64,000 bases of DNA from IMG/VR virus record IMGVR_UViG_3300014205_000183. One strand, 5' to 3'. This stretch comes from a virus (taxonomy: Duplodnaviria > Caudoviricetes). Every line of letters starts with the position of its first letter. Position 1 is the first letter of the stretch. Positions 6,311-38,286 of the stretch are shown one piece after another. The notes below the pieces were generated by a model, which had not been told where the DNA came from, made no database searches, and saw only the letters and a program-made list of their open reading frames with translations. The translations under genes and the position numbers were made by a program.

Positions 6311-6315
6311 GCGGC

Positions 6316-6666: not shown

Positions 6667-6720
6667 CAGTTCATCCTTTTTGTTAAGTTATATTATCGAC
6701 CTAAAAACATTAAAAATAAA

Positions 6721-8990: not shown

Positions 8991-10595
8991 TTAAAAAGAC
9001 GTAGTAAAGTTAGATAGATTAAATGTATTGAATTGGAATAATACATCGAATAATGTTGCGTATTGATTTTCTTGTATTGTCGTAGGGTCAGATAGATCTC
9101 CCGTAAGAGTATTAATGATGTAAAATGTATCTGTGTTGTAAGAAACTACACCCTCCGTCCGCAAAATAACCTGACCAACATCAGCATGCTGAATACGCTC
9201 ACCTATTTTTTTACGCGCAAATTGTTTACCATATGATGTTGTACCACCATTAAAAAATATAGAGATGTTGTTAGTCACTTGTGTCTCCACTGCGGAAACA
9301 TCATAACCAAAAGACGTGGTTAATTCAACAATAGTTCTTAAAGGAACCTCCACAGCTTTACGTACTAACGCTTGAGGACCAATCATCCTGTTGTCGGGAT
9401 TGTCTAATACTGCCTGAAGTAGATAAGGATTCTTATCATATACATACAACATTCTAATTTTACGCTGATAATCACCAACTCCTGTTGGGTCTACTTTTAA
9501 AGGCATTGCTAATTGGATTTTATCCATGGATTTGACAGACCCACTATAAGTTCCCGTGTCCTTAACAATGGTTAGAATGGGTGATACCCCACTAGGAATT
9601 ACTTGCTCCTCGGTATCCGCTGGATTCTGATATACAAAAGCTATAGGATCAACACTTGTTACTAATGGTTGCTTGGAAGGAGTAAAAAAGAACTGCTCTG
9701 TTGCCAAGTTATTAGCCTCTCCCGGCCAGTAGAAAAATTCTTCAACCAATTCTAAATTTTCTGCACCAAACTGAGTAAATAAATCACACACAGACCCTAC
9801 ATATATTTCTGCTGCTGGCTTATCCTCGTCCAAGGTGAGCACGTCATCTACATAAGATTGTGCACTCGCCAATCTGTCAAGGGCACCAATAGAACCGTTG
9901 GTGCGGTCAGCCCAGGCTGTGCGAGCACGATCTATAAGCTCTAAGTCCTCTTCTCTATTAGAACCGCCGGAAAGAGCAATCTCATTTGTGCAGTAGCTGA
10001 AACTACCAAATTTAGGACTCTGAGTTCTGACAGCGCCTACAGTGGCATTCGCATCTTGTCCAGTCACCGAGGATTGCACAGGTATAGTTACATAGTACAG
10101 ACCTTTAGCCGTACTAAAATTAGGAATCACATTAGATATGGCAGAGGTTGCGGCGTAAGTTGTGCCATTAGCACTTGTAAACTCTGTATTGCTACTCCAA
10201 GATACCGGGGAAGCGTCGGTAAGATAAACAGTAACTAATCCAGTGGCATTAGTGCCGGTACTTCTGATTACGTCAAAATCCTCTACATAAGCATCCAGGC
10301 GTTCAGAGATTAAAACATTGATGTCATCTATAGTGTAGGGCGTACCATCCTGCTTCGCACCCAGGGCAGTAACCATGGTGTCTTTGAAAGCCTCATCCGC
10401 TATTAAATTCTCAAATTCTGTGAGATTACGAGTACGGTCTTCAAACTCAAGTAGAACTTCATATCTATAGAACAACGGTGCGGTTGAGGCGACAATTACA
10501 TCGTAATTTGTGTCACCCTCAATCATACGGACATCGCTACGCAGCGCCAAAATATTGTCTACAATCGACTGTTTTATCTGGTCAACATTTCTCAT
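8991..10595 (-). CDS. Baseplate J/gp47-like wedge protein
   Basis: Typical baseplate J pattern: LDAYVEDFDVIR..GT.ATG.V, TNEIALSGGSNREEDLELIDR, IGE.I...V..ILRTEGV. Confidence 0.9.
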   Translation of the reverse strand: MRNVDQIKQSIVDNILALRSDVRMIEGDTNYDVIVASTAPLFYRYEVLLEFEDRTRNLTEFENLIADEAFKDTMVTALGAKQDGTPYTIDDINVLISERLDAYVEDFDVIRSTGTNATGLVTVYLTDASPVSWSSNTEFTSANGTTYAATSAISNVIPNFSTAKGLYYVTIPVQSSVTGQDANATVGAVRTQSPKFGSFSYCTNEIALSGGSNREEDLELIDRARTAWADRTNGSIGALDRLASAQSYVDDVLTLDEDKPAAEIYVGSVCDLFTQFGAENLELVEEFFYWPGEANNLATEQFFFTPSKQPLVTSVDPIAFVYQNPADTEEQVIPSGVSPILTIVKDTGTYSGSVKSMDKIQLAMPLKVDPTGVGDYQRKIRMLYVYDKNPYLLQAVLDNPDNRMIGPQALVRKAVEVPLRTIVELTTSFGYDVSAVETQVTNNISIFFNGGTTSYGKQFARKKIGERIQHADVGQVILRTEGVVSYNTDTFYIINTLTGDLSDPTTIQENQYATLFDVLFQFNTFNLSNFTTSF

Positions 10596-11074
10596 TATAA
10601 AACTCCTATAGTCGTTTGTACATCTGAGTTACTCTTCAAAGCCATCTGCACTCTACTGATCGAAGGGTTTGTATCATCATCCACCACAGTCAATTTAGAC
10701 ATGGTTGCAATCATGTCATCAGGTGACAAATTTTGAGCCACTGCCTGCGCGTCGATAAAAGATTTCATTGCCATTATGCCCATTGTTATATCCAAAAATA
10801 AACCCACACGTCTAACTATCACATCCTTCTCACCGATGAGGTCATAAACAGTAGTGCCATAACCGTTGTCCTGTTTCTCTGTGAATATGCATTTGAGAGA
10901 TCCTTGCACCACTGCCTCTTGCTTAGTAATAGTTTTAAGTGCACCATTTCCGTCAAGGTCCCAGTCGCAGTATCGCCAATCTCCTTGCTCCGGGTCACCA
11001 TCCCCAAATTGTATATCCAAGGGGTTCTGTTTCTCGTAGTTCACAAGTTGAAAAATAAGTTTTGATGTTGCCAT
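10595..11074 (-). CDS. gp25/W-like baseplate wedge (sheath initiator)
   Basis: 159 aa, DWDLDGNG.L..I...Q...KCIFTE...YGT.VYDLIG. Lies immediately upstream of baseplate J. Confidence 0.75.
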   Translation of the reverse strand: MATSKLIFQLVNYEKQNPLDIQFGDGDPEQGDWRYCDWDLDGNGALKTITKQEAVVQGSLKCIFTEKQDNGYGTTVYDLIGEKDVIVRRVGLFLDITMGIMAMKSFIDAQAVAQNLSPDDMIATMSKLTVVDDDTNPSISRVQMALKSNSDVQTTIGVL

Positions 11075-11078
11075 AGTT

Positions 11079-11690
11079 CTACCTATATGTTACGGTTCCA
11101 GCACCCGCTCCCGCAAAAATTGCGGTCGGACTGCCGACGGTACCCGCGCAAGCTGGTACAGTTATAACTCCCGCTGTAAGACCTAACAAAACAAAAGTCT
11201 GCATTACACCCCAGGCATCCTCTATTGTGGCTGGTTTAGTAGCCAACATCTGTGCCTTAGCTGCATTACCTTGTGCTGCCATAGCCGCAAATACTGTCGC
11301 CCCAGCACCTGTTAGAGTCCCAACACTGGAAGGGTCCCACGCTGTTATACTGGATACTATTGGTAATGCGGCCAATACCAAAAAGATAGCACTGAGATCT
11401 CCTATGGCCACAGTCTGAGCCAGCAACTGTGTCTTTATAGTCGCAGCAGGTGGCCATGTCAACTCCACGGTCGCAGGTCCTGCATAAGGTACTGCTGCGG
11501 CAGGCGGGACAGTGAGCGCACCTGTAGCCGTGCATATAACTGTCCGATTATCTGCATTATCGAGGTATTCAAAAATACCATCGGCCAAGGCGCCCATAGC
11601 AGTATCTCGCTGCTGGGAAGCGTCTACATTGGGCCAGTCGATTGTACTCATCATATCCAGTACACAGTCTTTAAAACTTTTAGCTGCCAT
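11079..11690 (-). CDS. Baseplate structural protein (spike-associated)
   Basis: 203 aa, Ala/Gly rich, between spike and gp25-like genes. Confidence 0.5.
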   Translation of the reverse strand: MAAKSFKDCVLDMMSTIDWPNVDASQQRDTAMGALADGIFEYLDNADNRTVICTATGALTVPPAAAVPYAGPATVELTWPPAATIKTQLLAQTVAIGDLSAIFLVLAALPIVSSITAWDPSSVGTLTGAGATVFAAMAAQGNAAKAQMLATKPATIEDAWGVMQTFVLLGLTAGVITVPACAGTVGSPTAIFAGAGAGTVTYR

Positions 11691-11693
11691 ATG

Positions 11694-13268
11694 TTAGGTC
11701 CCCATTACTTTCTTACCAATGTGGGGCGCTCCGCTGAAGATGCAATTTGGGATTGCACAGAAGGGACCTTCTCCTGGAGTTGGGGCAGCAGTACCAGCAA
11801 CGGTAAGATTGCCACCTGTTATAGTAACATCCGCAGAATCTATTATCGCTGATGTCTTGGCAGTAATGATTGCTTTGTCTGTAGATATAGACACTTCTGT
11901 GTTAGAGGTCAGTGTCACATTTTCAGCAACCAGGGATATGTCTGAGCTATCGGCCACAATGGAGACGCCTTCACCACCAGTTACTTTTATGTCTAGTGTT
12001 TTTTTAGAATCAATAGATAGGGTGCCATCGGGCAAGGCGGTTATCTTAAGGTTATAATCGGACGCAGTGCCACCACCAGCCTTGAGGAAAAACTCGGTTG
12101 TACCATCTGCAAGCACAGACGCTCGCATGAGACTGCCTGTAGTATCATCATATGTTGCCTTAACCTGAAACACAGTGTTGCCCTTAACAGATATAAGAGT
12201 GTCCCCTCCTATGCGAGCATTAATATGGCGCGGAACAAACAATTTCATATCACCTTGATCCGTTATGGTTTTAACAAAACCATACTTATCACCTACCGTG
12301 TTCTGTCTCTCTTGATGAGTAGCATATATCTTTTCGGTAGCAGGTAATTTCTCACCGTCAGTATCTGCCTGATACTTACGAATAACGATGGGTTGGAATT
12401 TCCACTTATCAAAGCGAGGAAGAATACCGCGAGTAACCGTCCTGTTTGGGTCAGGGTCTCCTTCTACTTTTAACTCTTTCTTGACCAATCTGTATTGTAC
12501 TAGATTTATTGGCTTAGGAGCCATTAGTTCAGCAATATCAGTAGGCTTGGATTCATCATTCTCTATAAGCTCATAATAAGAATCTTGATCCGCAACTTTT
12601 TTAAGTGCAGAGACATCATCCTGACCCGTGTCTGTTTTCCCGTGTGTCACTAAATATTCATTGCCGGGATTACGAGTCAACATAATAAGACGCCCGAACT
12701 TGTCATAAAAAGTTTCTGCACCTGGATTTCTTATGACGCTGTCGCTATTTTGGTCAAATTTACCATCATTATCTGGAGAAGATGCGGGATTATCAAATTG
12801 ATTATCGGCAAAAGGAAAATCCCCTGTAGCTCCTGGTGTTGAGGCCATAGCACTTCTAATGATGCGCTCACCAGGGTCTAACAATTGATTCAATCCGAAT
12901 AGTTGCTTATCATAAAAATCCAAAGTTGTTCCTTCGAGGATGACGGGTATTTGGTTATTCTTACGATTAAGCCAGGTAACAGTAACTCGTTCACCGTAGG
13001 GGAGGCAGCGTTGGTCTTGTGCACCAGTATTTCCTATCTGGCACAAGTGCGCCACATCGGATATTGTTAACCCACGGTCCAATTGCACCGTGTATAATCC
13101 CATCCAAATATATTGTCCCTTATCACCTTCTGGGCCATTAACTTTGGCGGCGTCAAGTGCGGGTGTTAAACCAGGGAAATTCTGTTTAGCACGACCTCGG
13201 ATGGTACCTTCTTCAAAGGTGATGTCAGAGGCTACTAAGTTATCAGAAAACGCTTGTGTTTGACTCAT
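11694..13268 (-). CDS. Baseplate central spike (gpV/gp5-like)
   Basis: N-terminal OB-like segment (LPYGERVTVTW..PVIL), then C-terminal beta-helix repeats ending GPFCAIPNCIFSGAPH (Cys/His tip). Confidence 0.75.
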   Translation of the reverse strand: MSQTQAFSDNLVASDITFEEGTIRGRAKQNFPGLTPALDAAKVNGPEGDKGQYIWMGLYTVQLDRGLTISDVAHLCQIGNTGAQDQRCLPYGERVTVTWLNRKNNQIPVILEGTTLDFYDKQLFGLNQLLDPGERIIRSAMASTPGATGDFPFADNQFDNPASSPDNDGKFDQNSDSVIRNPGAETFYDKFGRLIMLTRNPGNEYLVTHGKTDTGQDDVSALKKVADQDSYYELIENDESKPTDIAELMAPKPINLVQYRLVKKELKVEGDPDPNRTVTRGILPRFDKWKFQPIVIRKYQADTDGEKLPATEKIYATHQERQNTVGDKYGFVKTITDQGDMKLFVPRHINARIGGDTLISVKGNTVFQVKATYDDTTGSLMRASVLADGTTEFFLKAGGGTASDYNLKITALPDGTLSIDSKKTLDIKVTGGEGVSIVADSSDISLVAENVTLTSNTEVSISTDKAIITAKTSAIIDSADVTITGGNLTVAGTAAPTPGEGPFCAIPNCIFSGAPHIGKKVMGT

Positions 13269-20963: not shown

Positions 20964-22814
20964 TTATCCTGCAAGGTCAAAGCCCCATTCAAATTTCACC
21001 TGGTTTGTTGGGTAAATAGGTTTGTAATTAAACAGGATAAAAACCTTTGTAGGATTAACGGTATCCTGGAATACATTAGCAGGCGTGTAGCTTCTGATAA
21101 TCTGGTCAGCAACCAGACCATCCAATACCTTCTTAGTTGTGGAAGCAACAGCAGCCAACAGATTATTTGTCAACTTCTGACCAATAAACTGCTGATGTGC
21201 ATCACGCAGACGCTTTGCCATATAGGCTTCAGCAAGCACGATCGATATTTCAGAATCCTCGATACTAGCCTGACTGATTGTGAGAGCGTGTCGAACGAAC
21301 AAGTTATTGTAACGGTCTTCAAGAATTGTACCACCAACGGCTGCAATAGCGTTTTTACGACTATCATTCCACAAGCGAACTGTGCCTTCTACCCCACTCG
21401 TGATACCATAAACCTGCTTGTTTGTTGGAGGCACTGCGGGGTCGGCCAAAGCAGACACCATACCCATCATGGCGATTGCATGCCATTGACCATCAACCGC
21501 AAGGTTTGCAGTATAGCTGGTGGTCTTAGTTGCGCCATCAATAACACAAAGTTTATCTGGTGTATTTTGCCAGTTAACAAGCTGTGGGTGCCCACCATCC
21601 GTAACTGTAAAGATTACACGATTACTTCCATTAAGAGCCAAAATCTTAGCTGTAACTTTCGATACGTCTGTATCTGCCTGAATAGTAGAAGTTGTGGAAA
21701 CAAAACAAAAGCGGTCACGAGCATTTCCTGGTTCACTCATATCCGCACAATGTGCAGCCAGAGTTTCATTAACAGTATCACTGGAGCTACTGGTAGCAAG
21801 CAACAGGAGTTCCTGAATGGACTCACAAGAACTGATGGCATTTTGATAACCAACAATCTCTCCGTTAGATACTTCAGGAGCAACAGCGTACATAGAACCA
21901 GCAGCAGCACCTACACCGGCAGGGCCTAAGATCAATCTTCCTGCATTTGCAACTTCGGAACCAATGCCATGATCTTGCTGAAGAATTTCAGTATCAAAAT
22001 ACCGCTTAGGGCTGTTGTAGTTGTAAACGAGATACGTGTAGTTAACAAACACATCACCAGCGTTAGCAGGCATGTGCTGCGTACCGTTGGTTGCAGGTAA
22101 GGATAAAACACCATTAACAACCGCGGCGGATAATATGACGGAGGTCGTGGCGCCCGAAGAAATGGTGCCTTCTGTTGGCAGAGAGTACTGTGCAGCACTT
22201 CCGGCTGATGTTTTGATATAGATTTTATATCCAGAAGCATTGTTAATTTTACCCCAACGGACAGTCAAAGTGGCTGAGCTGGAACCAATGACGATTGTGC
22301 CTTCCGCTGCAAGGGAGAGGCTACCATTAGCATCTGTAGCCATAACTGCGACATTGTATGTGCCAGCAACAATTGACCCGCCTGTGCCTTCGACAAGACC
22401 ATCAAGTTCAGGATTTGGAACAACTGGCGCACTGGTAAAGTCCAAAACACCTGTGGCTTTATCAACTGTGAAATCAATACCCTCAACAAACTCACGTTTG
22501 TATGGATTGGCATGATCTGTTGATACTGTCAATATGTTTTGGATTGGTAGTCTTTGAAGACCCACAGTCTTCTTGGTAGAACTGCTGAACGCAACTTTTT
22601 CATAGTTAAGCGTATCGCCTACCTGTACTAAAAGTCCATCAATAAATACTGGGCTTGCTTCCGCATCGCCCGACACTTCAGCAACACGGCTCATCCCAGT
22701 TTCAGCACCAAGTGTTTTGGCGATTACCGTTGGAATAAAAAAGCTGGTGTTACCGAGCGGAGTTCCCGGGAGACCTGTTCGTTCGGTCTGCACACTTGGT
22801 TTTTGATAAGGCAT
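20964..22814 (-). CDS. Contractile tail sheath protein
   Basis: Begins MPYQKPSVQ. C-terminal sheath signature VRHALT...EISIV...FIGQKL...DTVNPTKVFILFNYKPIYPTNQVKFEW. Contains an Fn3/Ig-like insertion. Confidence 0.93.
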   Translation of the reverse strand: MPYQKPSVQTERTGLPGTPLGNTSFFIPTVIAKTLGAETGMSRVAEVSGDAEASPVFIDGLLVQVGDTLNYEKVAFSSSTKKTVGLQRLPIQNILTVSTDHANPYKREFVEGIDFTVDKATGVLDFTSAPVVPNPELDGLVEGTGGSIVAGTYNVAVMATDANGSLSLAAEGTIVIGSSSATLTVRWGKINNASGYKIYIKTSAGSAAQYSLPTEGTISSGATTSVILSAAVVNGVLSLPATNGTQHMPANAGDVFVNYTYLVYNYNSPKRYFDTEILQQDHGIGSEVANAGRLILGPAGVGAAAGSMYAVAPEVSNGEIVGYQNAISSCESIQELLLLATSSSSDTVNETLAAHCADMSEPGNARDRFCFVSTTSTIQADTDVSKVTAKILALNGSNRVIFTVTDGGHPQLVNWQNTPDKLCVIDGATKTTSYTANLAVDGQWHAIAMMGMVSALADPAVPPTNKQVYGITSGVEGTVRLWNDSRKNAIAAVGGTILEDRYNNLFVRHALTISQASIEDSEISIVLAEAYMAKRLRDAHQQFIGQKLTNNLLAAVASTTKKVLDGLVADQIIRSYTPANVFQDTVNPTKVFILFNYKPIYPTNQVKFEWGFDLAG

Positions 22815-24012: not shown

Positions 24013-24043
24013 ATGTTGAACTGGGTTATGGAGTTTTTGACTA
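24013..24043 (-). promoter_or_regulatory. 31-bp intergenic element, copy 1 (candidate late promoter/regulatory site)
   Basis: atgttgaactgggttatggagtttttgacta, identical to 38237-38267. Lies upstream of the tail gene block. Confidence 0.65.
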
Positions 24044-24051
24044 GTGCGGTA

Positions 24052-24885: not shown

Positions 24886-25737
24886 TTAACTAAGCACATT
24901 ACTAACACCTGCACCGCGGTTTGTTCGCTGTGTAGGCTCCACAATTGGCGGTGCCGGAACTCGGTATGCCATATCATAAAGTTGCATCTTATCCAATGTG
25001 AACGCCTGCGCAGTCACGTATCCCTGAATAGCTCGTTCTTTAGGATCACGAATACGGTACCGCACGTTGTGTTTTCGAATCACAATATCAGCTTCTGTGA
25101 GTCTAGGATAAGTGGCGATAGTGCCTGTGGTGCGTTCTTTTAAGGTAATACCACCTGAATCTCCAGCTAATGAAGTAGGAGCTGATTTTATGCGACAATA
25201 TACGTTCTCAATTAGCTCGTATCCGCCAGCATAGCCTGTGCCGAAGCATTTAGAACAATTTGCGTCTACTTTTCTACTGCGTGTATCGATACAATCGCAA
25301 TAAATGCCGGCCCACATACGCACTAAAAAGTGTACAACTTCTGCCGCACTAAAACGAGCAGGGTCCAACATCATATGAGTACGAGATCTAATTGTAGGTG
25401 CAATAAACCGCTGCATGCCTGCGAGAGGTACATCGAAAGTTTCTGATTTAGATTGAGATAACTTCCATTCAGAACCATCTTGTAACACGGGGACAACTTT
25501 ATAAAACCAGGTAATGCGGTCATTATTTACAGGGTCGCCGGTCATGCCTCGGTCTTGGAAGTAGTTAACTCGTAAAATTTTAGTATTTACTTTGTACCAG
25601 TCATTTGGATCGTCAGAATTTTCCTCTGCTCGATATATGTTGTAGCCCTGGACACCCCGCACGTGAATCCACGCCAGGTCTGTAACAAAATTACCGGCTT
25701 GCGAAAGTACTCGGTTAACTTTTAATCCAAAATCCAT
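24886..25737 (-). CDS. Head closure/stopper (neck) protein with an Fn3-like N-terminus and a Cys4 motif
   Basis: CDC...CSKCFGTGYAGGY motif typical of neck stopper proteins of large myoviruses. YPRL...DIVI...RYRI. GGAGG RBS. Confidence 0.7.
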   Translation of the reverse strand: MDFGLKVNRVLSQAGNFVTDLAWIHVRGVQGYNIYRAEENSDDPNDWYKVNTKILRVNYFQDRGMTGDPVNNDRITWFYKVVPVLQDGSEWKLSQSKSETFDVPLAGMQRFIAPTIRSRTHMMLDPARFSAAEVVHFLVRMWAGIYCDCIDTRSRKVDANCSKCFGTGYAGGYELIENVYCRIKSAPTSLAGDSGGITLKERTTGTIATYPRLTEADIVIRKHNVRYRIRDPKERAIQGYVTAQAFTLDKMQLYDMAYRVPAPPIVEPTQRTNRGAGVSNVLS

Positions 25738-25740
25738 GAG

Positions 25741-28700
25741 CTACCTCCACTCCTTCCGCATGTACCCACTCAGTACCTCTACTGCATCGGACTCATCTGC
25801 CCCATGTAACCCAATAATAATCTGCTCATCGTTTGCCTGACTGAATATCACTTCATCTGCCTGCCATGAAAAGGGCTGTACTTTCACACCTTCTAACCTT
25901 GTTCCCGGTTTAAGATAGCATAACGTGATGTGTGGTTGATAAACGGGATAGGTCTGGTCTGGTGCTAAATACTCTATAGCTTCTCGCAAGGCATGTAATT
26001 CGGGACTGTCAACTTTAATCACTGCAACTGTTTTGTCATCATGGTCGAAGTACTCCACAGCTTCACCAATATTTAAAGTGATGGGTTTTGTAAATTCCTC
26101 ACTCAATACTGCCTGAATATGTTCTGCATCAGTGTCCGCAGGTAAACCATAAAGCAGAGTGACGTGGCTTTGTGATTCCACGCCCATCAGCGTACCTTCT
26201 TCCGGTACTAAATCAGCAGGGTCTACATACTCACTTACGATGTCCTTAAGCAGATGATTGGAGATACGGGCAGGTACAGGCAGCATTAAGCAACCTTTAG
26301 AATGCGCAGCTCCTGCGAGAGTTTCTAAGTGTCCTATCAAGTCCTCAACCTCCGTAAATTCTTCATAAGGTTTATCTAGGGCATCAAGAAATGCCTTTTC
26401 TTTTTTAGTCCCTTCGCCGCCATTAAGAAACACTACTTCATCCGCAGTTGCAAGGTCGGTTAATTCTTCATAAATATTTTCTTCCGGTTTCCAATCATCA
26501 TCAACCGGGTCAATCAATTTTAAATCTGTGGCTAATTCATCAATAACATCTTCCCGCCAGTCCGTCTGAACTTCCCCACCCAGGAAAACCGTAGGTTTTT
26601 TAGCTGCGGTTTTCAACAGTGCCTTAGTGGTCATCGTCCAGTCTACAAATTCATTCTCGGATTCATCTATTGCAAAATGGTAGATACCCTTGACGCCGCG
26701 TGCTTTTAGTTCATCAAATAACATTTGGTTTTCCGGCCAGTCACGAGTACCGCTGATTGATTCTGATAGGTCGGATAAGAGTTCCTCATCTGCATAAAGA
26801 ACATTGTCAACTTGCACTTTGGCCATAGTCACGACATCACCAAATACTTCCGCATAGTCCTCGGTTTCTGCCCAGTAAATACCCGCACCTAAATCAGAAC
26901 CAAAGCCTGCACCTGTGCCTTCCCCATGATACATAACTTTAGACACAGATTCAAGAGGTAAATCGGCAGTACCAAGTACACTAAAATTTTTATTTGTTTT
27001 TACTCGGCGGGCTTTAACAATCTCAATCTGCTCAGGAGAAAAGACAATATAAGATATGGCATTGGAATCATCACCTTCAAACTGGTTCTCATATAACACG
27101 CCATCGTATCCCTTGGCCTCCATACCGCGGCGTACATCTTCAGGAGTTTTAAACTGTGCAAACTCAGCATCTGTGAATGGTCCTTCATTAGCTTCTGCCA
27201 GGTACTCTTCAAGCATATCCATATCTTCCCAGTCGCCTAAATCGGAAACTATATCATAAGGATTATTAAGAGTCAGTCGTGCGGTGATTATGCGGGGCTT
27301 CTGTATCCCCTTATCATTAGCACGTGAGATGGCCTGCTCCCGGGTGCCAAAGTGGGCACCAAAACCTGTTATATTAAAGGTATCAAAATCTGCATCCGTG
27401 GCATGATAAACCAGCTTGGCGGAATTTTTAACTTGGCTCATCGGCTTCGACAGCTGTGTGTTCGAAACAGCAGCTGTGGTTGCTAACCCCGATTTCTGAA
27501 GAAGCTCTCGTAATTGAATTAGGTTATCTGATTCATAATCTACATCATCAAGAGTTAAAACAGCATGCCCCCTAAGTTTAGCAGCATCTTTTAGTAAATC
27601 TTTTATTAATGCCTTTACTTGCGGTGACATATTTGAAGTAGCCTCTATAAAAATATCATCTCCCTCAGTCACCATACGAGCATAGCCTTTATCAAAAGCA
27701 AGTTGGTATACCATTTCTTGAGGTGCAGTAGCTAATGATTTGTCTTTAAGAATTTTATTAATTACATATTCACCATGTGATTCTCCATCCAACATTGTAC
27801 CCTTACCATTAGGCGCCACCCAAAAATTAGCAGCCTGCTTTTTAAGACTCATTAACTTCGGTAGCTGTGGGGCTGTGGTCGAAGGGCATCTACCGGCGGT
27901 AAGGCTGGCGGTAATGTCTGGATTATCCGCGTCAAACTTACCGCTGTTACCCGTGGCGCTTTTTATCTGTTCGGGATCGAAAGCCACGTAAGTTATAACA
28001 CCTGCTTCTACCCCAATCAAACCATCATAACCAAAATCCTTAAGAGCATATCGTAAACCAACACCAACATCCCCATCCATAGCTTCCCAAAACTGCGAAG
28101 GGGGTAAAGTTGTTAACCACTCATAATTAACAACATGGTCGAGTTCTTCCGCCACGTTACTTGGCCAACCTTCTCGCACATCCAAAGGATTTTTCAAGGA
28201 AAGATATACGGGTAAAATACGAGGCGTTCCGGTATCACTAATATTTCGCTCATCAGTATATTCTAAAGCTGTTGCAGGGTCTGGTGTGAAATAAAATCCT
28301 GATCTACTCCAGCCAGGGTGTTCTTTAAATAACTTAAAATCAGAATTAGTACCATGGTATACCACTAACGGTTGCCCCTGAGCATCAACGACCTTTGAGG
28401 CACCAAACCACGCCTTGAACGCCTGGCTATCAGTCTGAGTGCTGGCGGTGACACTGGCAACAATATTCGGGTCCTGCGCGTCAAACTTACCGCTGTTACC
28501 CGTGGCGGACTTAATCTGTGTGGGATAAAACGCGATTATGTTGTCCCCCCAAAAGATACCGTCATGACCGTGCTTCTTTAAAATCTCAGAGGGGTCAGGA
28601 TTTCTTGTGTCGTATTCAGGATACGCATTAGACATCTGCTCTAAAATACCAGCAGACCAATTAACTGTGCTGTCAGGATTTACTGTGTCAGTTTGTACTA

Positions 28701-28950
28701 TGAATGGGTTTTGAATTGATAGATAGGCTTCAAGTAAAGTTCCTCCGTAGTTTTCAGCTTCTTCTCTGTTTTTAGTGAAATAGAAACCTCTTCCTGCCCA
28801 GCCAATTAGTTGTTTTGACGCATCAAAGGTATTAAAATTATTCTTTGTCCCGTGGTACACCACTAACGGCTGTCCGGTGCTGTCAACAACTTTACTATCG
28901 CCGAACCAGGCTTTGAATTCTGGAGACTCTGTCATATTTACTTTTGACAT
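25741..28950 (-). CDS. Multidomain effector: 4 ADP-ribosyltransferase-like domains, an NDT-like domain and an Acb1-like 2H phosphodiesterase
   Basis: Start MSKVNMTE at 28950. Two FKAWFGxSKVVD..PLVVYHGT..GFYFT..YLS..NP..G(H/Y)DG..QIKSATGN units (ART-PolyVal type) and two further YH..G.Y/HF units. Then VFLGG..DWRE..IDP..W, and finally HVTLLYG / PHITLCY. Confidence 0.85.
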   Translation of the reverse strand: MSKVNMTESPEFKAWFGDSKVVDSTGQPLVVYHGTKNNFNTFDASKQLIGWAGRGFYFTKNREEAENYGGTLLEAYLSIQNPFIVQTDTVNPDSTVNWSAGILEQMSNAYPEYDTRNPDPSEILKKHGHDGIFWGDNIIAFYPTQIKSATGNSGKFDAQDPNIVASVTASTQTDSQAFKAWFGASKVVDAQGQPLVVYHGTNSDFKLFKEHPGWSRSGFYFTPDPATALEYTDERNISDTGTPRILPVYLSLKNPLDVREGWPSNVAEELDHVVNYEWLTTLPPSQFWEAMDGDVGVGLRYALKDFGYDGLIGVEAGVITYVAFDPEQIKSATGNSGKFDADNPDITASLTAGRCPSTTAPQLPKLMSLKKQAANFWVAPNGKGTMLDGESHGEYVINKILKDKSLATAPQEMVYQLAFDKGYARMVTEGDDIFIEATSNMSPQVKALIKDLLKDAAKLRGHAVLTLDDVDYESDNLIQLRELLQKSGLATTAAVSNTQLSKPMSQVKNSAKLVYHATDADFDTFNITGFGAHFGTREQAISRANDKGIQKPRIITARLTLNNPYDIVSDLGDWEDMDMLEEYLAEANEGPFTDAEFAQFKTPEDVRRGMEAKGYDGVLYENQFEGDDSNAISYIVFSPEQIEIVKARRVKTNKNFSVLGTADLPLESVSKVMYHGEGTGAGFGSDLGAGIYWAETEDYAEVFGDVVTMAKVQVDNVLYADEELLSDLSESISGTRDWPENQMLFDELKARGVKGIYHFAIDESENEFVDWTMTTKALLKTAAKKPTVFLGGEVQTDWREDVIDELATDLKLIDPVDDDWKPEENIYEELTDLATADEVVFLNGGEGTKKEKAFLDALDKPYEEFTEVEDLIGHLETLAGAAHSKGCLMLPVPARISNHLLKDIVSEYVDPADLVPEEGTLMGVESQSHVTLLYGLPADTDAEHIQAVLSEEFTKPITLNIGEAVEYFDHDDKTVAVIKVDSPELHALREAIEYLAPDQTYPVYQPHITLCYLKPGTRLEGVKVQPFSWQADEVIFSQANDEQIIIGLHGADESDAVEVLSGYMRKEWR
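27928..28507. repeat. 31-bp identical direct repeat marking the duplication of two ART domains (27928-27958 and 28477-28507)
   Basis: cgcgtcaaacttaccgctgttacccgtggcg occurs twice, encoding ATGNSGKFDA. Confidence 0.85.
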
Positions 28951-28954
28951 ATAG

Positions 28955-29824
28955 TTACCCGTAGAAAGTATTTGACATATGAGGAAGCAGACTAAGCTGT
29001 CTGGTGTAATACAAAGGAAATTTTCCCGATGCCATACCGATACCACCTGCCAACTTATGAAATGCAGCATCTCTCTTCCACGCTTGAATAGATACTAACC
29101 ACTGCTGCTTCAAAGATTGAGCATTCTGAAAGAAAGCACTTCTATCGACGTTTAATGTCAACTCATCCCCGTAGTTAAATTTATTCCAGGTCTCAAATAT
29201 GCCAGCGGCCTCCAGAGCAGCAATAAAACCACCGGTCAATACTAGGTCGTGACCACCAGCAAAAGTCTGCTCCCAAGAGATAAGTCCAGGCGCAGGAGGC
29301 GTCTGACCCATCTTAATACGGGCGTCATCGAGAAAGGAGTACAATTCCCCATTTGTCCAGCGTGTACGCTGATTGTCATCAATGAGATATCTGCTTGCCC
29401 GTTTATCCCACAACTTAGCACGTAGAGCACCGATGAAATATTGTTCAATAGGTGCTTGTGAAGCCGTGAAACCTAGTTGGTGTATAACTGTGTCAGATGT
29501 ACCAGGAACTGTACCTGTAAAAGTCAACACGTAAGAACCAGGCTCCATACCGTTAGTTAAAAACTCGAACATCCACACACCAACGGAGTCATCTTTACGA
29601 GATAGTGGAACTAAAATTTTTGGTATACTATAGGCAACACTATCTTTGGTGACTGTAGTTGATATTGGGCTGGGGTCAAAATATAACTGCGTCTTAGGGT
29701 CAATCCAGTCGATATTGATACTACAGTGGTCTTTATTAATATCGAGACCCTGAACATTGATGCCCTGGAGTTGTGCACCTGGGGCTGCTGCAAGCTCAGT
29801 GCCTGGAAGGGCGTTAATTGCCAT
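28955..29824 (-). CDS. Head-tail adaptor-like protein with an N-terminal Ig-like domain
   Basis: Start MAINALP at 29824 (AGGAGG). The C-half LRAKLWD..WTNGELYSFL..QTPP..FNYGDELTLNVDRS fits adaptor proteins. Position is between capsid and stopper. Confidence 0.65.
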   Translation of the reverse strand: MAINALPGTELAAAPGAQLQGINVQGLDINKDHCSINIDWIDPKTQLYFDPSPISTTVTKDSVAYSIPKILVPLSRKDDSVGVWMFEFLTNGMEPGSYVLTFTGTVPGTSDTVIHQLGFTASQAPIEQYFIGALRAKLWDKRASRYLIDDNQRTRWTNGELYSFLDDARIKMGQTPPAPGLISWEQTFAGGHDLVLTGGFIAALEAAGIFETWNKFNYGDELTLNVDRSAFFQNAQSLKQQWLVSIQAWKRDAAFHKLAGGIGMASGKFPLYYTRQLSLLPHMSNTFYG

Positions 29825-29990
29825 GTCGTACCTCCTGCCGCCTACGTGCGTCTTCCGCATCACGTATAGGTGCTTTTATTTGCTCAATCATATCTGGAAC
29901 GTTTAGAGACCCACCTTCACCGCCGCCACGAGCCATATCAGGCCCGTTGCGAAAGTAGTTCGAATCTCTTACTTGATCCTCAGTGGTCAT
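29814..29990 (-). CDS. Small hypothetical protein (58 aa, not in the ORF track)
   Basis: MTTEDQVRDSNYFRNGPDMARGGGEGGSLNVPDMIEQIKAPIRDAEDARRRQEVRHGN. ATGA overlap with the upstream stop, and it fills the gap exactly. Confidence 0.6.
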   Translation of the reverse strand: MTTEDQVRDSNYFRNGPDMARGGGEGGSLNVPDMIEQIKAPIRDAEDARRRQEVRHGN

Positions 29991-32980: not shown

Positions 32981-33017
32981 AAAATAAAGGTGGAGGGGTG
33001 GTTTGCCACCCCTCACC
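32981..33017 (-). terminator. Intrinsic terminator after the major capsid gene
   Basis: GAGGGGTGG-CAAA-CCACCCCTC hairpin followed by CACCTTTATTTT. Confidence 0.85.
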
Positions 33018-33023: not shown

Positions 33024-33926
33024 TTAACCTGCTGTGTTAAATGTGCCCTTAGAAACAGCTTTTGCGTTGTGTACGGTCATGCCGAGCAACTCATAGCCTA
33101 CGAATCCAAGAAGCAGATTGTCTGGGTCATCTGCTGGGATAACATCAACATCACGACGGATAGGCATCCAAGCTGTGAACTCAGGTTCCGCAATAATGTA
33201 GAAAGTACCAGAAGTAACCTGATCGTTGATATAAATATCAGCGTCCCAAATTGATCCCAGGTAGCCGCTCTTACGAATTTCTTCACGGGCGACATTGTCA
33301 ACCATGAGATAATCCCAACGACGTACACCCTGGATACCAAACGGTGACATCAGAACAGATTTAACGCGAAGACGATGCTTCTCAACCTCAGTGAAGGCTT
33401 TGGCAAGAGCGTCTTTTGTTAAGTATGTTGTGACAGCGGTTGTTACGTTCAGCTGCTGAGACACTGTCTCAAGAAGACTGAATCCGTAAAGGTCTTCACG
33501 CAGAGCCATGCCCTGTTCAAGACGTTCTTTAACACGCTTCATCACCTGGTAGAGGCGCTTGTAAAGTTCTGCGTATGGAACTTTTGGCTTTACCACGATT
33601 TCGAACTCATCGAGTGTGGTTCTTTCAACCTGTACTTCGATGATACGAGTTGTACCGTTTGCGCCAATCTTGGCGGCGGTAAACTCTTCGATATCGTTGT
33701 CGTAAATCATAGGCATACCATCAGGCCAACCTTCTGTTACGGCAAATTTACGAAAAATCCCGATATAATCGAGATACTTGCGTACTGGGGACGCAAGGTT
33801 AGCAGCAATTTTGGAAAGCCCTGTAGGACTTTTCATCGCAGCCTGGAGATCCGCTTCACGGCGAATCAGTGCGGCTTTGGTAGCTTCCCGCTGCAAGGAA
33901 GAATTTTTCATCGTTCCTGTGGTCAT
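33024..33926 (-). CDS. Major capsid protein (HK97 fold)
   Basis: 300 aa from MTTGTMK (AAGGAG RBS). LASPVRKYLDYIGIFRK..EFEIVVKPKV..GYLGSIWDADIY..GFVGYELLGMTVHN. Follows protease, scaffold and decoration genes, with a strong terminator behind it. Confidence 0.9.
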   Translation of the reverse strand: MTTGTMKNSSLQREATKAALIRREADLQAAMKSPTGLSKIAANLASPVRKYLDYIGIFRKFAVTEGWPDGMPMIYDNDIEEFTAAKIGANGTTRIIEVQVERTTLDEFEIVVKPKVPYAELYKRLYQVMKRVKERLEQGMALREDLYGFSLLETVSQQLNVTTAVTTYLTKDALAKAFTEVEKHRLRVKSVLMSPFGIQGVRRWDYLMVDNVAREEIRKSGYLGSIWDADIYINDQVTSGTFYIIAEPEFTAWMPIRRDVDVIPADDPDNLLLGFVGYELLGMTVHNAKAVSKGTFNTAG

Positions 33927-34039
33927 TTGAGACTCCTTGTTATGTTGTTTGTACAACCTATATTTATGTCCTGCTGTTTTTCAGCTAATGGACTATTAGG
34001 TTCTGATTAATATTTCTGTCCAACCATTTCAAAATTTAA

Positions 34040-34078
34040 CGTGCAGGCAAGCGGCGGGTTAGACCGCTCGCCCACACG
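34040..34078 (-). promoter_or_regulatory. 15-bp RNA hairpin in the capsid gene leader
   Basis: CGUGUGGGCGAGCGG/CCGCUUGCCUGCACG, with three G-U pairs that only pair on the minus-strand RNA. Confidence 0.6.
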
Positions 34079-34538: not shown

Positions 34539-36803
34539 TTAATTACAATCTTCAAAAAATGTTCCGTTTTCCAGAGACGCTGAGACAACACCTGGAGTGC
34601 CACCATCAATAATCTCAGACTGCCTTCTTGAAAGTGAAGCCTGGACCTTATTAGCAGTTCTGTTTGCCAGAGTAGGCGTCTGCGCCTTATTAGCTTCCAG
34701 ATTAGCGATCAGTCTTCCAAAGGCTTTAAATTCAGCTTGGGCGTTCCTGTACAGTTCAGCCAATACCGTCTGTTGTTCACCACGCTGTTCTTCGGTTATT
34801 GCACCTACTTTAACGGCACGGTCTGTTAATAATGTGGCCTCAGTAACCGACAGGCGCTCAGCCATTTTACGATTACTTTCAACCAATATAGTTGCTTTTA
34901 ATTCTGCTTTTTTTACCATTGAGAACTGTGGGTCAACCTTCTCCTCTTTAGAAGTAGTGCTGTACCCTTTACCGTTCTGGTCAAGACCTCTGAGTGTTTT
35001 TGACACGTCAGCACTTGCGTCAGGGCGTTTAGTTGTTGCACTGTCTGTTGGACTGTCCGGTGTTTTAGCTGTGGACTTCTTCACCATACTGAACTGAGGA
35101 TCAACCTTTTCATCCTTAGAAGTGGAACCGTATCCCTTACCGTTCTGGTCAAGACCTCTGAGTGTTTTTGACACATCAACGCTTGCATCAGGACGTTTAG
35201 TTGTCGCACTGTCTGTTGGACTGTCTGGAGTCTTGGCAGTAGCTTTCACTTGCTTATTACTACGAGCAACCAATGCCTGGGCTTCAGGTTCTGTCGCACA
35301 TTCAACAATTTCAGTTTCTGAAATTTGAACATTAAACTTACCATTAGGAGCAGGTGCGTAAGTGGTTGTGAAGCTCTTACCAACTGTACCATTATCAGAA
35401 GCAGGTGCTTCTGGAGCTGGTATAGCATCGGGAGCTTTATCTGCTTTAGCATCGGGACCAGGAGCATCACCTTCAGCAGCAGTCTTTTTCTTACCGCTAC
35501 GAACCATCTTTATAGCTGCGCGAACGCGGTCTTCAATAGAAGCACCCTTAAGGTCAGGCATTTCACCTGCTTCAGGTTTTTCAACCTTTTCAGCTTTGTC
35601 ACCTTCAGGTTTTTCAGTTTTCTCTTCTTTGGCTTCGATCTTCTCGACAGCTTCCTCAACTTTTTCAGTTGGGATTTTGATAGTGACATTCTTCTCATCA
35701 GCCTTAACTGTAACGTCTTTTTCAGCAGACTTTTTAACGGATATGATCCTTTTTACAGAATTAGCCATTACAGTCTTTTCGATTCCGGCGACAGATACTT
35801 TAAGACGGGCACCATCAACAGAACTGATGACCCCAATAGAACCGTCAGCAAGCAGTACGCGCTCAGCAGCAGCATATACTGTAGTAGATGCAATTGTGGC
35901 TGTACGATAATTTTTACCTATTGGCTTACGCATAGCTGAAACAGTTTTAACTGGTGTGCTTGCTGCGGCAACCGATTTTGTAGGCATGAGCTTATCAGCC
36001 ATACGCTCTAGGATAGTGGCCTGACGCACATTTGCTGCTTTTTTAGTTGCATCTTTTTCAAGCGCAGCTTTCTTTGTGAGACTCATGGCAGCAGTATATA
36101 ATTTCTTAGCACGAGCACGACGATTGGCGGAAACATCAGGCCCACCTTCATTCATGCCTGGGGCATGACTGTTGATTGGCGCACCTTTTTCTTTTTCTTC
36201 GGTGTTACCAGCCTGTGGAAACTGCGGAGGCATTCCTGGAGCCATACCTTTCTGAGGTGGGCGATTACCAGGCACTGTACCGGAATCCATCACTGGGGCT
36301 TCACCCTCAGCAGCACGTCTGCGGAGAGCAAAACTACGACGAGCAGCTTCACGAGCACGAAGACTTGCAGCCTTCTCAGGTGCTTTGATAGCATCGGTTG
36401 ATGGATAACCTTTTTCAAGTTTTTCAAGTTCAGGAGAAGAAGCAAGTCTACTTACTTCTGTAGCCAGCTTTTTGACATGGTCAATTGCAGCTTGGATCTT
36501 CGTGGCATCTCTACGGATGCTAAATCCTCTGATTGCAGCCTGACGAACACCCTTGTCCGCATCTGCACGAGTAATGAGGTTTTCACTTGCACTTTTGTTT
36601 AAAGCAGCGCGTTTAGCAGTCACCTGCTGACCAGCTTTAACATTTGCGGCTTTGAGTTGAAACAACTCAGCAGCGGCTGAACCAAGTGTGCTTTTAATTT
36701 CACGAACCTGCATAGATGACAACCGGGTTTTGCGCGTCCGGGCGGCATCAATAAGGCGTCCGACCTTGTCTAGGCCTGACATAAGTAATTTCTTATCAAC
36801 CAT
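34539..36803 (-). CDS. Scaffold/inner-core protein
   Basis: 754 aa, Ala/Lys rich with coiled segments, between protease and capsid. Has many KxA motifs. Confidence 0.65.
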   Translation of the reverse strand: MVDKKLLMSGLDKVGRLIDAARTRKTRLSSMQVREIKSTLGSAAAELFQLKAANVKAGQQVTAKRAALNKSASENLITRADADKGVRQAAIRGFSIRRDATKIQAAIDHVKKLATEVSRLASSPELEKLEKGYPSTDAIKAPEKAASLRAREAARRSFALRRRAAEGEAPVMDSGTVPGNRPPQKGMAPGMPPQFPQAGNTEEKEKGAPINSHAPGMNEGGPDVSANRRARAKKLYTAAMSLTKKAALEKDATKKAANVRQATILERMADKLMPTKSVAAASTPVKTVSAMRKPIGKNYRTATIASTTVYAAAERVLLADGSIGVISSVDGARLKVSVAGIEKTVMANSVKRIISVKKSAEKDVTVKADEKNVTIKIPTEKVEEAVEKIEAKEEKTEKPEGDKAEKVEKPEAGEMPDLKGASIEDRVRAAIKMVRSGKKKTAAEGDAPGPDAKADKAPDAIPAPEAPASDNGTVGKSFTTTYAPAPNGKFNVQISETEIVECATEPEAQALVARSNKQVKATAKTPDSPTDSATTKRPDASVDVSKTLRGLDQNGKGYGSTSKDEKVDPQFSMVKKSTAKTPDSPTDSATTKRPDASADVSKTLRGLDQNGKGYSTTSKEEKVDPQFSMVKKAELKATILVESNRKMAERLSVTEATLLTDRAVKVGAITEEQRGEQQTVLAELYRNAQAEFKAFGRLIANLEANKAQTPTLANRTANKVQASLSRRQSEIIDGGTPGVVSASLENGTFFEDCN
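34908..35243 (-). repeat. Tandem 168-bp (56-aa) duplication in the scaffold-like gene
   Basis: TAKTPDSPTDSATTKRPDAS.DVSKTLRGLDQNGKGY..TSK.EKVDPQFSMVKK occurs twice. Matching DNA at 34981 and 35149. Confidence 0.95.
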
Positions 36804-36842: not shown

Positions 36843-38168
36843 TTAGCGAGCCACACTGGCCGCCCGTTCTTCCGTTTTAGCGCCTTCAAATTGGTTGCTG
36901 TCTGCCCGATTCTCATAATCCATATCTTCAGCAAATTCCTTAACTTCAATAATATCCTGCCGCATAATATCGACAGGTTCATCTAGCCCATCAATGGCAA
37001 CCACTAAGCTCCCATCCTCATGCTCTTCAACAACCACAGCATCAACTTCATCCTCTTCATATTTGATAAGGATGATGGTGCCTTCGGGAGTATCTCCAGG
37101 GGCATTCTGCTCAGCAATGTGCTCTTGGATAGCCTCTTTTTTCTCGTTAATAAACTCATCTCGATTCTGCTCTACATTACCAGGCATTTCACCAATCATG
37201 ACGTACATATCTGGGGTTTTACGAATAGATTGGGAAGGGTTTGGATTTGTCTCAATGTATGCTACTTTGGCAGCTGTTTTCTTCTTACTGGAAAAAACCT
37301 CCAACAACTTAGCATCTTTATCAGCACCCTCGCCACCAGCCTTACCACCAAAACGGAAAGGTAATATGAGACTATCTTCAAAGAAACCACAACCACGGTT
37401 AATTTCAAATGGAATGACGAACATGCCACCGATCTGCATTTGGCGACCTTTGTGAAGTCTAATGCAATCACAAAAATCTTCATGCTCTGGTAACTCACCA
37501 TTGGCAGCGTTACCACAAACAGAACAAACCGCAGATTCCACCATAGTACCCATGCTGGAGTCAGTCACTTCACCAGCTAGAATAGCCCGACATAAACCTC
37601 GAGTATGATCTTCCGCCTGTTCTTTGTTAATAGCCCAGACATTCTCAACCCAACCAGAATTCGCCATATGCTTAGCAACCGCCTCAACTATCTGCCTCTG
37701 ATCGCTGCCTCTTACGAGTTTGCGGTCATTTGCGTAAGAGAGCACTTTGCCAAAGGCTTCTTTATTAGAGGCACAAGTAGCAGTTAAATTATCCAGGAGC
37801 TGATTAAATGGCATTATGGGCAGCCCCAAATCATCCCGAATACCTGGGATGGGGATAAACTCACTGTCCAACACAATACCGATTTGAGTCGTTCCTATAT
37901 GATCAACACTAATAGGCCTACCAATAAAAGAAGGATACGATTTTGCAAGTTCATCGTATTCAAAGGCGTCCCAGTTCTGGTTTGGCCCGTGAATCTCTAA
38001 GGCACTGATAGCTCTGTTTCGTAAATAAATATGGTTTTCAGGGTCCAAGTCAAAGGACTCCATACGATTAGCGGCCTGCTTAACTAAACCACCTTGCCAC
38101 GGACGGACTAAGCCTGCTAGCGTAGAGGAGGTCTTAATAATTTTTGCTGAACCGTAAGCTATTAGCAT
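36843..38168 (-). CDS. Prohead (capsid maturation) protease with a Zn-finger insertion
   Basis: N.N.DAF..EL..Y.SFIGRPISVDH..GIVLDS (His) and DSSMG (Ser), followed by CSVCGN...CDC and EIN...FFEDS. Canonical position upstream of scaffold and capsid. Confidence 0.85.
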   Translation of the reverse strand: MLIAYGSAKIIKTSSTLAGLVRPWQGGLVKQAANRMESFDLDPENHIYLRNRAISALEIHGPNQNWDAFEYDELAKSYPSFIGRPISVDHIGTTQIGIVLDSEFIPIPGIRDDLGLPIMPFNQLLDNLTATCASNKEAFGKVLSYANDRKLVRGSDQRQIVEAVAKHMANSGWVENVWAINKEQAEDHTRGLCRAILAGEVTDSSMGTMVESAVCSVCGNAANGELPEHEDFCDCIRLHKGRQMQIGGMFVIPFEINRGCGFFEDSLILPFRFGGKAGGEGADKDAKLLEVFSSKKKTAAKVAYIETNPNPSQSIRKTPDMYVMIGEMPGNVEQNRDEFINEKKEAIQEHIAEQNAPGDTPEGTIILIKYEEDEVDAVVVEEHEDGSLVVAIDGLDEPVDIMRQDIIEVKEFAEDMDYENRADSNQFEGAKTEERAASVAR

Positions 38169-38236: not shown

Positions 38237-38267
38237 ATGTTGAACTGGGTTATGGAGTTTTTGACTA
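38237..38267 (-). promoter_or_regulatory. 31-bp intergenic element, copy 2
   Basis: Identical to 24013-24043. Upstream of the protease-scaffold-capsid block. Confidence 0.65.
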
Positions 38268-38286
38268 CTGACTCACTTAAAACCGG

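Follow-up and report, generated by a model that had tools for sequence, protein, structure and literature searches.

What is a gene for a large, apparently multi-enzyme protein doing among the head genes of a large, uncultured tailed phage (Duplodnaviria; Caudoviricetes)? The question is raised by positions 25741–28950, minus strand, of a 64,000-nucleotide (nt) stretch of the IMG/VR virus record IMGVR_UViG_3300014205_000183 (this whole stretch is the window of what follows; the source genome record is a 132-kb IMG/VR entry with a CheckV completeness of 68%). The product belongs to the polyvalent proteins as Iyer et al. (2017; PMC5512222) defined them, and the best explanation, to which we would give about an even chance of being right, is that it is a late-made effector that is packaged, injected and cut by the head protease into three pieces.

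A polyvalent protein of seven modules

On the minus strand the open reading frame (ORF) is open from 29070 to 25741, its first 40 codons overlapping the upstream ORF; translation probably begins at the ATG at 28950, 4 nt past the stop of that ORF, which gives a product of 1,069 amino acids (aa). The protein collection contains an identical protein, encoded by a 236,752-bp contig. Pfam was run on the whole 1,069-aa protein and on its seven separate pieces and, with profile and fold comparisons, placed seven modules on the ORF where an earlier note, made from the sequence alone, had put them (ART, ADP-ribosyltransferase; NDT, nucleoside 2-deoxyribosyltransferase):

25741–28950, minus strand: whole gene, polyvalent effector protein, 1,069 aa, 118 kDa, isoelectric point 4.5
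28441–28950, minus strand: module 1, ART-PolyVal 1, aa 1–170 (FKAWFGDSKVV leader, His33, Tyr57, Asp130)
27832–28440, minus strand: module 2, ART-PolyVal 2, aa 171–373 (His199, Tyr220, Asp309; 30-aa linker)
27436–27831, minus strand: module 3, repeat domain, aa 374–505 (W-x-x-P-x-G ... H ... G-[WY]-[AV]-R-[VM])
26989–27435, minus strand: module 4, ART-PolyVal 3, aa 506–654 (no FKAWFG leader; His516, His533 replacing Tyr, Asp616)
26605–26988, minus strand: module 5, mini-ART, aa 655–782 (invariant His, Tyr and an E-x-E-like acidic cluster)
26311–26604, minus strand: module 6, NDT-like (DrHyd superfamily), aa 783–880
25744–26310, minus strand: module 7, Acb1-like 2H phosphoesterase, aa 881–1069 (H-V-T with His929, H-I-T with His1007)

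The identities proposed in that note were also right, including the ART relationship of the fourth ART-like segment (profile and fold comparison): the three ART-PolyVal modules and the 2H domain came out above their cut-offs, module 5 is ART-like by profile and fold, and the NDT assignment was borderline. Membership of the polyvalent class follows the sense in which Iyer et al. (2017; PMC5512222) use the term, and the note's ART-containing polyvalent reading agrees with that paper: the seven modules comprise at least four kinds of effector domain on one polypeptide, in a phage whose portal, head protease, major head protein and tail sheath genes are all in the window. No peptidase domain of its own was found in the protein by Pfam or PHROGs, such a domain (zincin MPTase or assemblin-like) being frequent, but not obligatory, in polyvalent proteins. 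The seven-module architecture is unique in the protein collection, as is normal for the class, and a 20-kb nucleotide search against cultured phages gave no match.

Three canonical ART-PolyVal modules

ART-PolyVal is the commonest protein-modifying domain of polyvalent proteins, a single one of which may carry as many as 12 copies; it is also found alongside 2H domains, and is defined by an H-Y-D signature of which the His lies in strand 1 and the Asp in strand 5 (Iyer et al., 2017; PMC5512222). Modules 1, 2 and 4 all exceed the PF18760 (ART-PolyVal) cut-off of 31.2 bits, with matches at aa 23–156 (92 bits, E 6e-26), aa 189–339 (98 bits, E 1e-27) and aa 514–645 (42 bits, E 1.6e-10), respectively. 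A 90-nt repeat (27895–27984 and 28444–28533, 76% identical) represents the C-terminal tail common to modules 1 and 2, and module 4 is 56–57% identical to the C-terminal ART of two other proteins, P0007 and P0008. When the three modules were aligned with 17 ART-PolyVal domains from IMG/VR loci (alignment A2, 20 sequences), the invariant columns were the His of V-V-Y-H-G and the Asp-Gly of G-Y-D-G, and modules 1, 2 and 4 keep both the His and the Asp. The strand-2 Tyr is kept in modules 1 and 2 and is His in module 4 (G-A-H-F-G-T); this column varies across the alignment (Y/H/W/F/L), and the same Tyr-to-His change is seen in other members. Modules 1, 2 and 4 are predicted to be NAD+-dependent ADP-ribosyl transferases. 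A PDB sequence search with the ART-PolyVal profile detected no solved structure.

A near-invariant leader, F-K-A-W-F-G-x-S-K-V-V, stands on modules 1 and 2 and not on module 4. It was considered as an independent cargo tag, and this idea was rejected: in all of 108 occurrences among the sequences compared it is followed by a YHG-type or degenerate ART start, and it is therefore taken as part of the ART domain.

A divergent mini-ART

Module 5 matched no Pfam family, PF18760 included. When 1.84 billion representative proteins were searched exhaustively with HMMER, only five genuine relatives, of 146–473 aa, emerged (two further hits, P0060 and P0061, were rejected as low-complexity artefacts). 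Some are stand-alone small genes amid small phage accessory genes, and one (P0055, 473 aa; positions 3062–4483 of locus L087) is fused to a thumb/palm (nucleotidyltransferase) region of the DNA-polymerase-beta type. The six sequences (alignment A1) have in common an invariant His (M-Y-H-G), an invariant Tyr (G-I-Y-W-A) and an acidic cluster, D-x-x-E-x-E-x-x-D-W. Comparison of module 5 with A2 by hhalign (probability 94.5%, E 7.7e-8) aligned the YHG and G-x-Y motifs of the two families and set G-V-K-G-I of module 5 opposite G-Y-D-G-I; because the family Asp is thus replaced, module 5 is not a regular ART-PolyVal domain.

The AlphaFold2 (AF2) model of module 5 has a mean predicted local distance difference test (pLDDT) score of 71.6, being weakest at the His strand and below 50 for residues 1–29. 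In an all-against-all VIA comparison its top matches were mostly ART folds (Z 6.0–4.3, root-mean-square deviation 3.3–4.3, 93–117 residues aligned): MbcT (Z 6.0, 110 residues), NatT (5.9), an insecticidal toxin (4.9), PARP2 (4.8), a chain of the cyanophage A4 pre-ejectosome (4.7), ParT (4.3) and diphtheria toxin (4.3), with 6kyf_A at 3.2. The best matches in BFVD were polyvalent and 'PolyVal ADP-ribosyltransferase' proteins. Foldseek found no PDB match at E ≤0.001, and CBS domains, which it listed at E of only 0.1–1, were rejected as the fold. The profile, VIA and BFVD comparisons together support an ART fold for module 5, probably as a divergent mini-ART of a very rare family. In its length (about 115 aa) and small ART fold it is like the minimal ART or RES-type toxins MbcT, NatT and ParT and the anti-CRISPR chain 6kyf_A, but it differs from them in the absence of sequence similarity, in its modest Z scores and in having H...Y...E-x-E rather than R-E-S.

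The pre-ejectosome chain (PDB 9k3a_B) is a solved ejection protein, of which about residues 1419–1596 align in ART-like fashion with the module 5 model (98 residues). The text of the paper describing it does not mention ADP-ribosyltransferase, and as a possible ART-PolyVal member by sequence the region was not detected with the ART-PolyVal profile.

An NDT-like domain beside a 2H phosphoesterase

Taken alone, module 6 matches PF15891 (Nuc_deoxyri_tr2) at aa 786–843 with 32.0 bits (cut-off 30); the corresponding domain of P0003, a 1,588-aa relative, scores 23.6 bits. Its identity to relatives is 70% for P0003, 63% for P0062, 53% for the protein of locus L004 and 45% at the lowest. The motif G-G-x-G-[TS]-x-x-E-K is conserved in module 6 and all of these relatives, including those of L004, P0003 and L086, and its Glu is presumably the counterpart of the catalytic Glu of NDTs. 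A PDB search with the NDT alignment (A4) gave weak Acb1 matches only, in a profile of which the full-length P0003 sequence had turned every column into a profile position.

The 2H assignment of module 7 comes from aa 928–1023, which match PF13563 (42.3 bits) and Acb1 PF23474 (34.8 bits) above the cut-off of 27 that applies to both. The two HxT motifs are kept in P0003 and L004, and the only PDB sequence relatives of the module are Acb1 chains, at a weak E of 0.013. In Acb1 of phage T4 the equivalent two histidines are catalytic residues (Hobbs et al., 2022; PMC9117128).

The two domains are adjacent or close in five phages: that of the window and those represented by P0062, P0003, L004 and L086. 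The order is NDT-2H in the window and P0062, NDT-module 3-2H in P0003 and 2H-NDT in L004, and the L086 product, a 414-aa protein, consists of NDT-2H without any ART (its contig is 64% GC and has a capsid protein only 30% identical). An exact-pattern search of IMG/VR for NDT-2H found none; an alignment-based search of IMG/VR recovered L004 again, and L086. In a later survey, the Aravind group recorded the DrHyd superfamily in viruses only in versions of the ADP-ribosyl-cyclase type (PMC9503650), and therefore the NDT-2H pairing may be undescribed. It is tempting to speculate that the two domains act in sequence on one nucleotide substrate. The P0062 ORF (10001–11377 in the region of the ERZ1426829 contig that was compared) ends inside its 2H domain and is overlapped for 8 nt by the next ORF (11370–12554); a frameshift or an assembly error is a possible cause.

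A repeat domain interspersed with the enzymes

Module 3 has no Pfam match. A hidden Markov model (HMM) built from module 3 and P0003 finds five copies in P0003, each with E <1e-42, a result that is circular, and one copy each, with E of about 1e-15, in P0007 and P0008, which is independent of the HMM training. In P0003 the copies alternate with enzymatic domains, and roles as a loading handle, a chaperone or an inhibitor may be guessed at. The AF2 model, made from a four-row alignment, reached a pLDDT of only 59.8, and no fold was assigned; a gelsolin-like fold was not credited, VIA-wide Z being ≤3.5. A feature search of the atlas returned unnamed clusters only, and a word-based homologue search only the 1,069-aa protein itself.

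In locus L081 (10001–24263), P0007 (1,420 aa; module 3 plus the ART resembling module 4, at 56% identity) adjoins a 383-aa gene and a 3,690-aa ORF, so the same modules occupy a different cargo-like polyprotein cluster in that phage.

A candidate cleavage motif at two of the junctions

The earlier note had supposed that the modules are released as separate enzymes by cutting at their junctions. The strings that it quoted (SVTAS, SLTAG, KKQAA, KNSA, GTAD, LKTAA and AGAA) do all lie in inter-domain linkers, and two of the seven, KKQA/A and LKTA/A (the slash marks the predicted cut), match a motif of the head proteins, K-[TQ]-A-[AGST]; the other five do not, SVTAS, SLTAG, GTAD and AGAA being without the Lys and KNSA without the T/Q.

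27829–27843, minus strand: junction 1, K-K-Q-A/A, aa 370–374, predicted head-protease site
26602–26616, minus strand: junction 2, L-K-T-A/A, aa 779–783, predicted head-protease site

The proteins of the head block (12,199 aa) contain the motif 29 times, versus three times in the remaining 28,270 aa of the record, with about 2.6 expected by composition (Fisher p = 1e-12), and for K-K-[TQ]-A the counts are 13 versus 0. A looser form is densest in the 754-aa gene in the scaffold position (10 sites), which is also the gene richest in [KR]-x-x-A sites for its length. The strict motif is present in the head protease itself (VKQA/A at aa 32, KKKTA/A at aa 299) and, in several head proteins, 8–32 residues from the N-terminus, as propeptide sites would be; this placement is the pattern expected of a prohead-protease site, in so far as sequence can indicate one. 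In the 1,069-aa protein there are two strict sites versus 0.16 expected (P about 0.01), and both fall within the 11% of residues that are linker. The joint at junction 1, L-P-K-L-M-x-(x)-K-x-x-A, recurs in P0003 and P0062 preceding different modules, and the equivalent of junction 2 in P0003 is S-K-I-A/A-K-P. SVTAS and SLTAG lie directly behind the ART-PolyVal C-terminal tail D-I-x-x-S.

Since only two of the seven junctions match the head motif, three fragments are predicted, not seven enzymes; with moderate confidence, the predicted cleavage would give at most three products.

Genomic position

All genes of the window are on the minus strand. In the order of transcription they include the portal (47490–50642), the head protease (36843–38168), the 754-aa scaffold-position gene and the major head protein (33024–33956, closest to phage G gp27 at 36% identity), followed by five unknown genes, the polyvalent gene, a 283-aa gene, four small genes and the tail sheath (20964–22814). 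The features that bear most directly on the polyvalent gene are:

28955–29863, minus strand: upstream flank, 302-aa ORF, 64% identical to the L004 gene preceding its polyvalent gene
24886–25737, minus strand: downstream flank, 283-aa phage G gp175-like virion or neck-side protein, 68% identical to its L004 counterpart
36843–38168, minus strand: head maturation protease, candidate processing enzyme (phrog_18299, E 4e-8)
38237–38270: 34-bp direct repeat, copy 1, upstream of the protease gene
24013–24046: 34-bp direct repeat, copy 2, at the head of the tail block, 97% identical to copy 1

The flanking genes had been called a head-tail adaptor and a stopper in the earlier note, and neither label was confirmed. 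The 302-aa protein matches no named family, connector or otherwise, and no structure; BLASTP did not link it to Tunturi 5 gp319 or phage G gp174, and among the genes upstream of the slot in the various phages homology was found only with L004. The 283-aa protein has homologues in phage G (gp175) and Tunturi 5 (gp322, annotated 'minor tail protein'), and matches phrog_38102, 'virion structural protein' (E 3e-5).

The pair of 34-bp repeats, a candidate late promoter or regulatory box, brackets the capsid block from the protease to just past the polyvalent gene. Strong terminator-like hairpins on the minus strand (32993–33014 and 34040–34078) flank the major head protein gene, which suggests a lower level of transcription for the genes that follow it, the polyvalent gene among them.

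Two further observations concern genes of the head block. The portal (1,050 aa) matches portal PHROGs only over aa 60–413, and its region of about 390–760 matches thymidylate synthase and ribonucleotide reductase PHROGs, which fits an intein or homing-endonuclease insert; and a tandem 168-nt repeat (82%) occupies 34909–35244 within the 754-aa gene.

The slot in related phages

The earlier note had asked for a comparison of domain content among relatives. The slot between the 302-aa and 283-aa genes carries other polyvalent products in four relatives, once as separate genes, and these hold different mixes of the same module types.

L004 slot: 839-aa 2H-NDT-unknown-ART protein, then an Amidase_2 gene, with TnpB just upstream (capsid 85%, flanks 64% and 68% identical)
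P0003 contig slot: 1,588-aa protein between 298-aa and 283-aa genes
ERZ1426829 slot: four ORFs (a 225-aa ART alone, then 441, 458 and 394 aa) between 290-aa and 280-aa genes
Tunturi 5 slot (cultured phage, 309 kb): gp321, 1,362 aa, with SprT-like, 2H, three ART-PolyVal and GNAT domains, just before gp322
Phage G slot: gp175 directly after gp174, polyvalent gene absent

The ERZ1426829 arrangement, with the modules split over several ORFs, shows that they can function as independent proteins. Tunturi 5 gp321 (PP885688.1, 6502–10590) resembles the window protein in its slot upstream of a gp175-like gene, in coming from a related jumbo myovirus and in its three ART-PolyVal and 2H domains; it differs in having SprT-like zincin and GNAT domains, in having neither NDT nor modules 3 and 5, and in its length of 1,362 aa. 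It was deposited as 'MutT/NUDIX hydrolase', and Pfam finds no Nudix domain in it at E ≤0.01. The Tunturi paper contains no virion proteomics, and neither cleavage sites nor ARTs are dealt with in the multi-omics paper on phage G. In L004, a close relative, the slot region has acquired the TnpB/IS605 OrfB gene (5931–6767) and the separate Amidase_2 (N-acetylmuramoyl-L-alanine amidase) gene (10301–10996).

Packaged and cut, or something else?

T4 Alt and the internal proteins IPI–III are packaged in the head, cut by the gp21 prohead protease and injected; Alt and the internal proteins have an N-terminal capsid-targeting peptide and are cut after L/I-x-E. The window protein resembles them in being a late-made ART that is proposed to ride in the head, to attack host proteins immediately and to be processed at a motif common to the scaffold proteins, and differs in having no N-terminal propeptide and in its candidate motif, K-[TQ]-A/[AGST]. 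T4 Alt belongs, moreover, to the R-S-E clade, whereas the ARTs of the window are of the H-Y-D type (PMC5512222), and neither R-S-E nor a targeting peptide was found in them.

For the polyvalent proteins as a class, capsid packaging, injection and proteolytic release have been predicted (Iyer et al., 2017; PMC5512222). The window protein is like others of that class in carrying unrelated effectors on one chain, with multiple ART-PolyVal domains and a 2H domain, and in being encoded beside portal and capsid genes. It differs in having no zincin/MPTase, MuF, portal or RNA polymerase (RNAP) module, in adding an NDT/DrHyd-like domain and two domains without a Pfam family (modules 3 and 5), and in that any processing would be only by the phage head protease.

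The sequence of events that we favour is as follows. Several autonomous, host-directed enzymes on one chain would be made late, with the capsid genes; the 1,069-aa protein would be loaded into the prohead; the head maturation protease would cut it after Ala373 (KKQA/A) and Ala782 (LKTA/A) into pieces of 41 kDa (ART1-ART2), 45 kDa (repeat-ART3-mini-ART) and 32 kDa (NDT-2H); and it would be ejected with the DNA into the cell. There the ART domains would use NAD+ to ADP-ribosylate host targets, and the NDT-2H pair may degrade cyclic or 2'-5' nucleotide immune signals, such as the cyclic oligonucleotides of CBASS (cyclic-oligonucleotide-based antiphage signalling systems), a suggestion based on Acb1 and on the discussion of 2H domains by Iyer et al. 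(2017; PMC5512222). Opening of the phosphodiester would fall to the 2H domain, while its NDT-like partner may remove the base or bind the nucleotide. Packaging and injection are suggested by gene position, the common motif and family precedent, the position being that between the major head protein and the tail sheath, inside the block bracketed by the 34-bp repeats.

Several points weigh against this reading. The chain begins directly with the ART leader and lacks an N-terminal targeting propeptide like those of T4 Alt and the internal proteins. The density of the motif (two per 1,069 aa) is below that of the neighbouring cargo-like polyproteins (4–11 each), the 839-aa L004 homologue is without any K-[TQ]-A-[AGST] site, and Tunturi 5 gp321 has a single K-S-A-A; the motif itself has, in any phage, the standing of a candidate cleavage site. 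Among the enzymes, module 6 scores 27.6 bits against PF15891 in the context of the full protein, below the cut-off of 30, so that the NDT assignment is borderline, and the ART-PolyVal Asp position is Lys in module 5 and Lys, Asn or Gln across its family. Packaging, expression and enzyme activity, for this protein and its close relatives alike, are predictions from sequence.

Might the protein be an anti-defence protein made late in the cytoplasm and never packaged, which blunts abortive infection triggered by structural proteins, its ARTs inactivating defence proteins and its NDT-2H pair destroying cyclic-nucleotide signals? We consider this unlikely, though far from negligible. Gene position shows only that the gene is co-transcribed with capsid genes, and the want of a targeting peptide would be as expected. 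T4 Acb1 is a free cytoplasmic enzyme (PMC9117128), relatives of module 5 occur as small stand-alone genes amid accessory genes, and the amidase gene in the L004 slot implies that slot cargo need not be virion-borne. Less easily accommodated are the two copies of a motif nearly confined to head proteins, both at domain joints, and the fusion of ART-PolyVal proteins elsewhere to MuF, portal and virion-RNAP modules; and early immune signalling would escape an anti-defence enzyme that appears only late in infection.

Alternatively, the protein might be packaged and injected uncut, as a 118-kDa chain like the virion RNAP of phage N4, its K-x-A-A joints being linkers or recombination scars. The N4 enzyme, ArdC and TraC1 all travel unprocessed (Iyer et al., 2017; PMC5512222), the protein has no peptidase domain, and the motif-free L004 homologue would be readily explained. 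However, the enrichment of the motif, its scaffold, protease and N-terminal propeptide-like placement and the conserved LPKLM..K.A joint suggest that it has a function, and the relative with its modules as separate genes indicates that physical linkage is not required. We think that passage as an intact chain is decidedly doubtful.

The full version of the earlier proposal, in which the protease cuts all six junctions to give seven enzymes, seems very improbable. Linkers contain all but one of the protein's seven T-A-[AGSD] strings, and I-A-G or T-A-S stands just ahead of the ART leader in P0003 and L004, but the five strings that depart from the head motif lack its defining residues, D-I-T-A-S aligns with the family's own D-I-R-F-S tail, and T-A-[AGSD] is far less restricted to head proteins, with 51 occurrences there, 25 in tail proteins and 14 in the others. 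Attachment of the protein to the neck or collar, on the outside of the capsid, which might be imagined from the position of the gene between the 302-aa and gp175-like genes and from the Tunturi 5 annotations 'head-tail connector' and 'minor tail protein', is scarcely credible, as all seven modules are of intracellular type, needing NAD+ or nucleotides, no structural-repeat or fibre-like domain is present, and in phage G gp175 adjoins gp174 without such a gene between them, which marks the gene as accessory.

Implications for polyvalent proteins and head proteases

The polyvalent class has been known since 2017; what may be new here are the pairing of NDT and 2H, the family to which module 5 belongs, the repeat nature of module 3, the comparison of slots and the candidate cleavage motif. 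Module 7 is like Acb1 (T4 gp57B; Hobbs et al., 2022; PMC9117128) in passing the PF23474 cut-off and in HxT motifs that align with those of the H44/H113 type. Acb1, in contrast, is a free protein of about 150 aa, whereas module 7 is the C-terminus of a 1,069-aa chain, beside an NDT-like domain, and its CBASS substrate is a prediction.

A much more sweeping proposal can be framed for the large myoviruses resembling phage G and Tunturi 5: that they have a lineage-wide, dedicated and rapidly changing effector slot where the head genes meet the tail genes, whose products are cut by the head protease at a hitherto undescribed site, K-[TQ]-A/[AG], into packaged sets of enzymes, with the NDT-2H pair, as a conserved unit, degrading immune nucleotide signals irreparably in two steps, module 5 representing a new mini-ART family, and module 3 serving as a loading or chaperone handle supplied once per enzyme. 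Taken as a whole, we judge this to be rather unlikely.

The protein offers a well-delimited example for the polyvalent class, in which direct experiments are scarce, and the slot comparison extends to cultured material: the deposited annotation of Tunturi 5 gp321 as a 'MutT/NUDIX hydrolase' overlooks its three ARTs and its 2H domain. If it is true that K-[TQ]-A/A is cleaved, the specificity of the head protease in these phages would differ from the x-x-E sites of T4, phiKZ and SPN3US.

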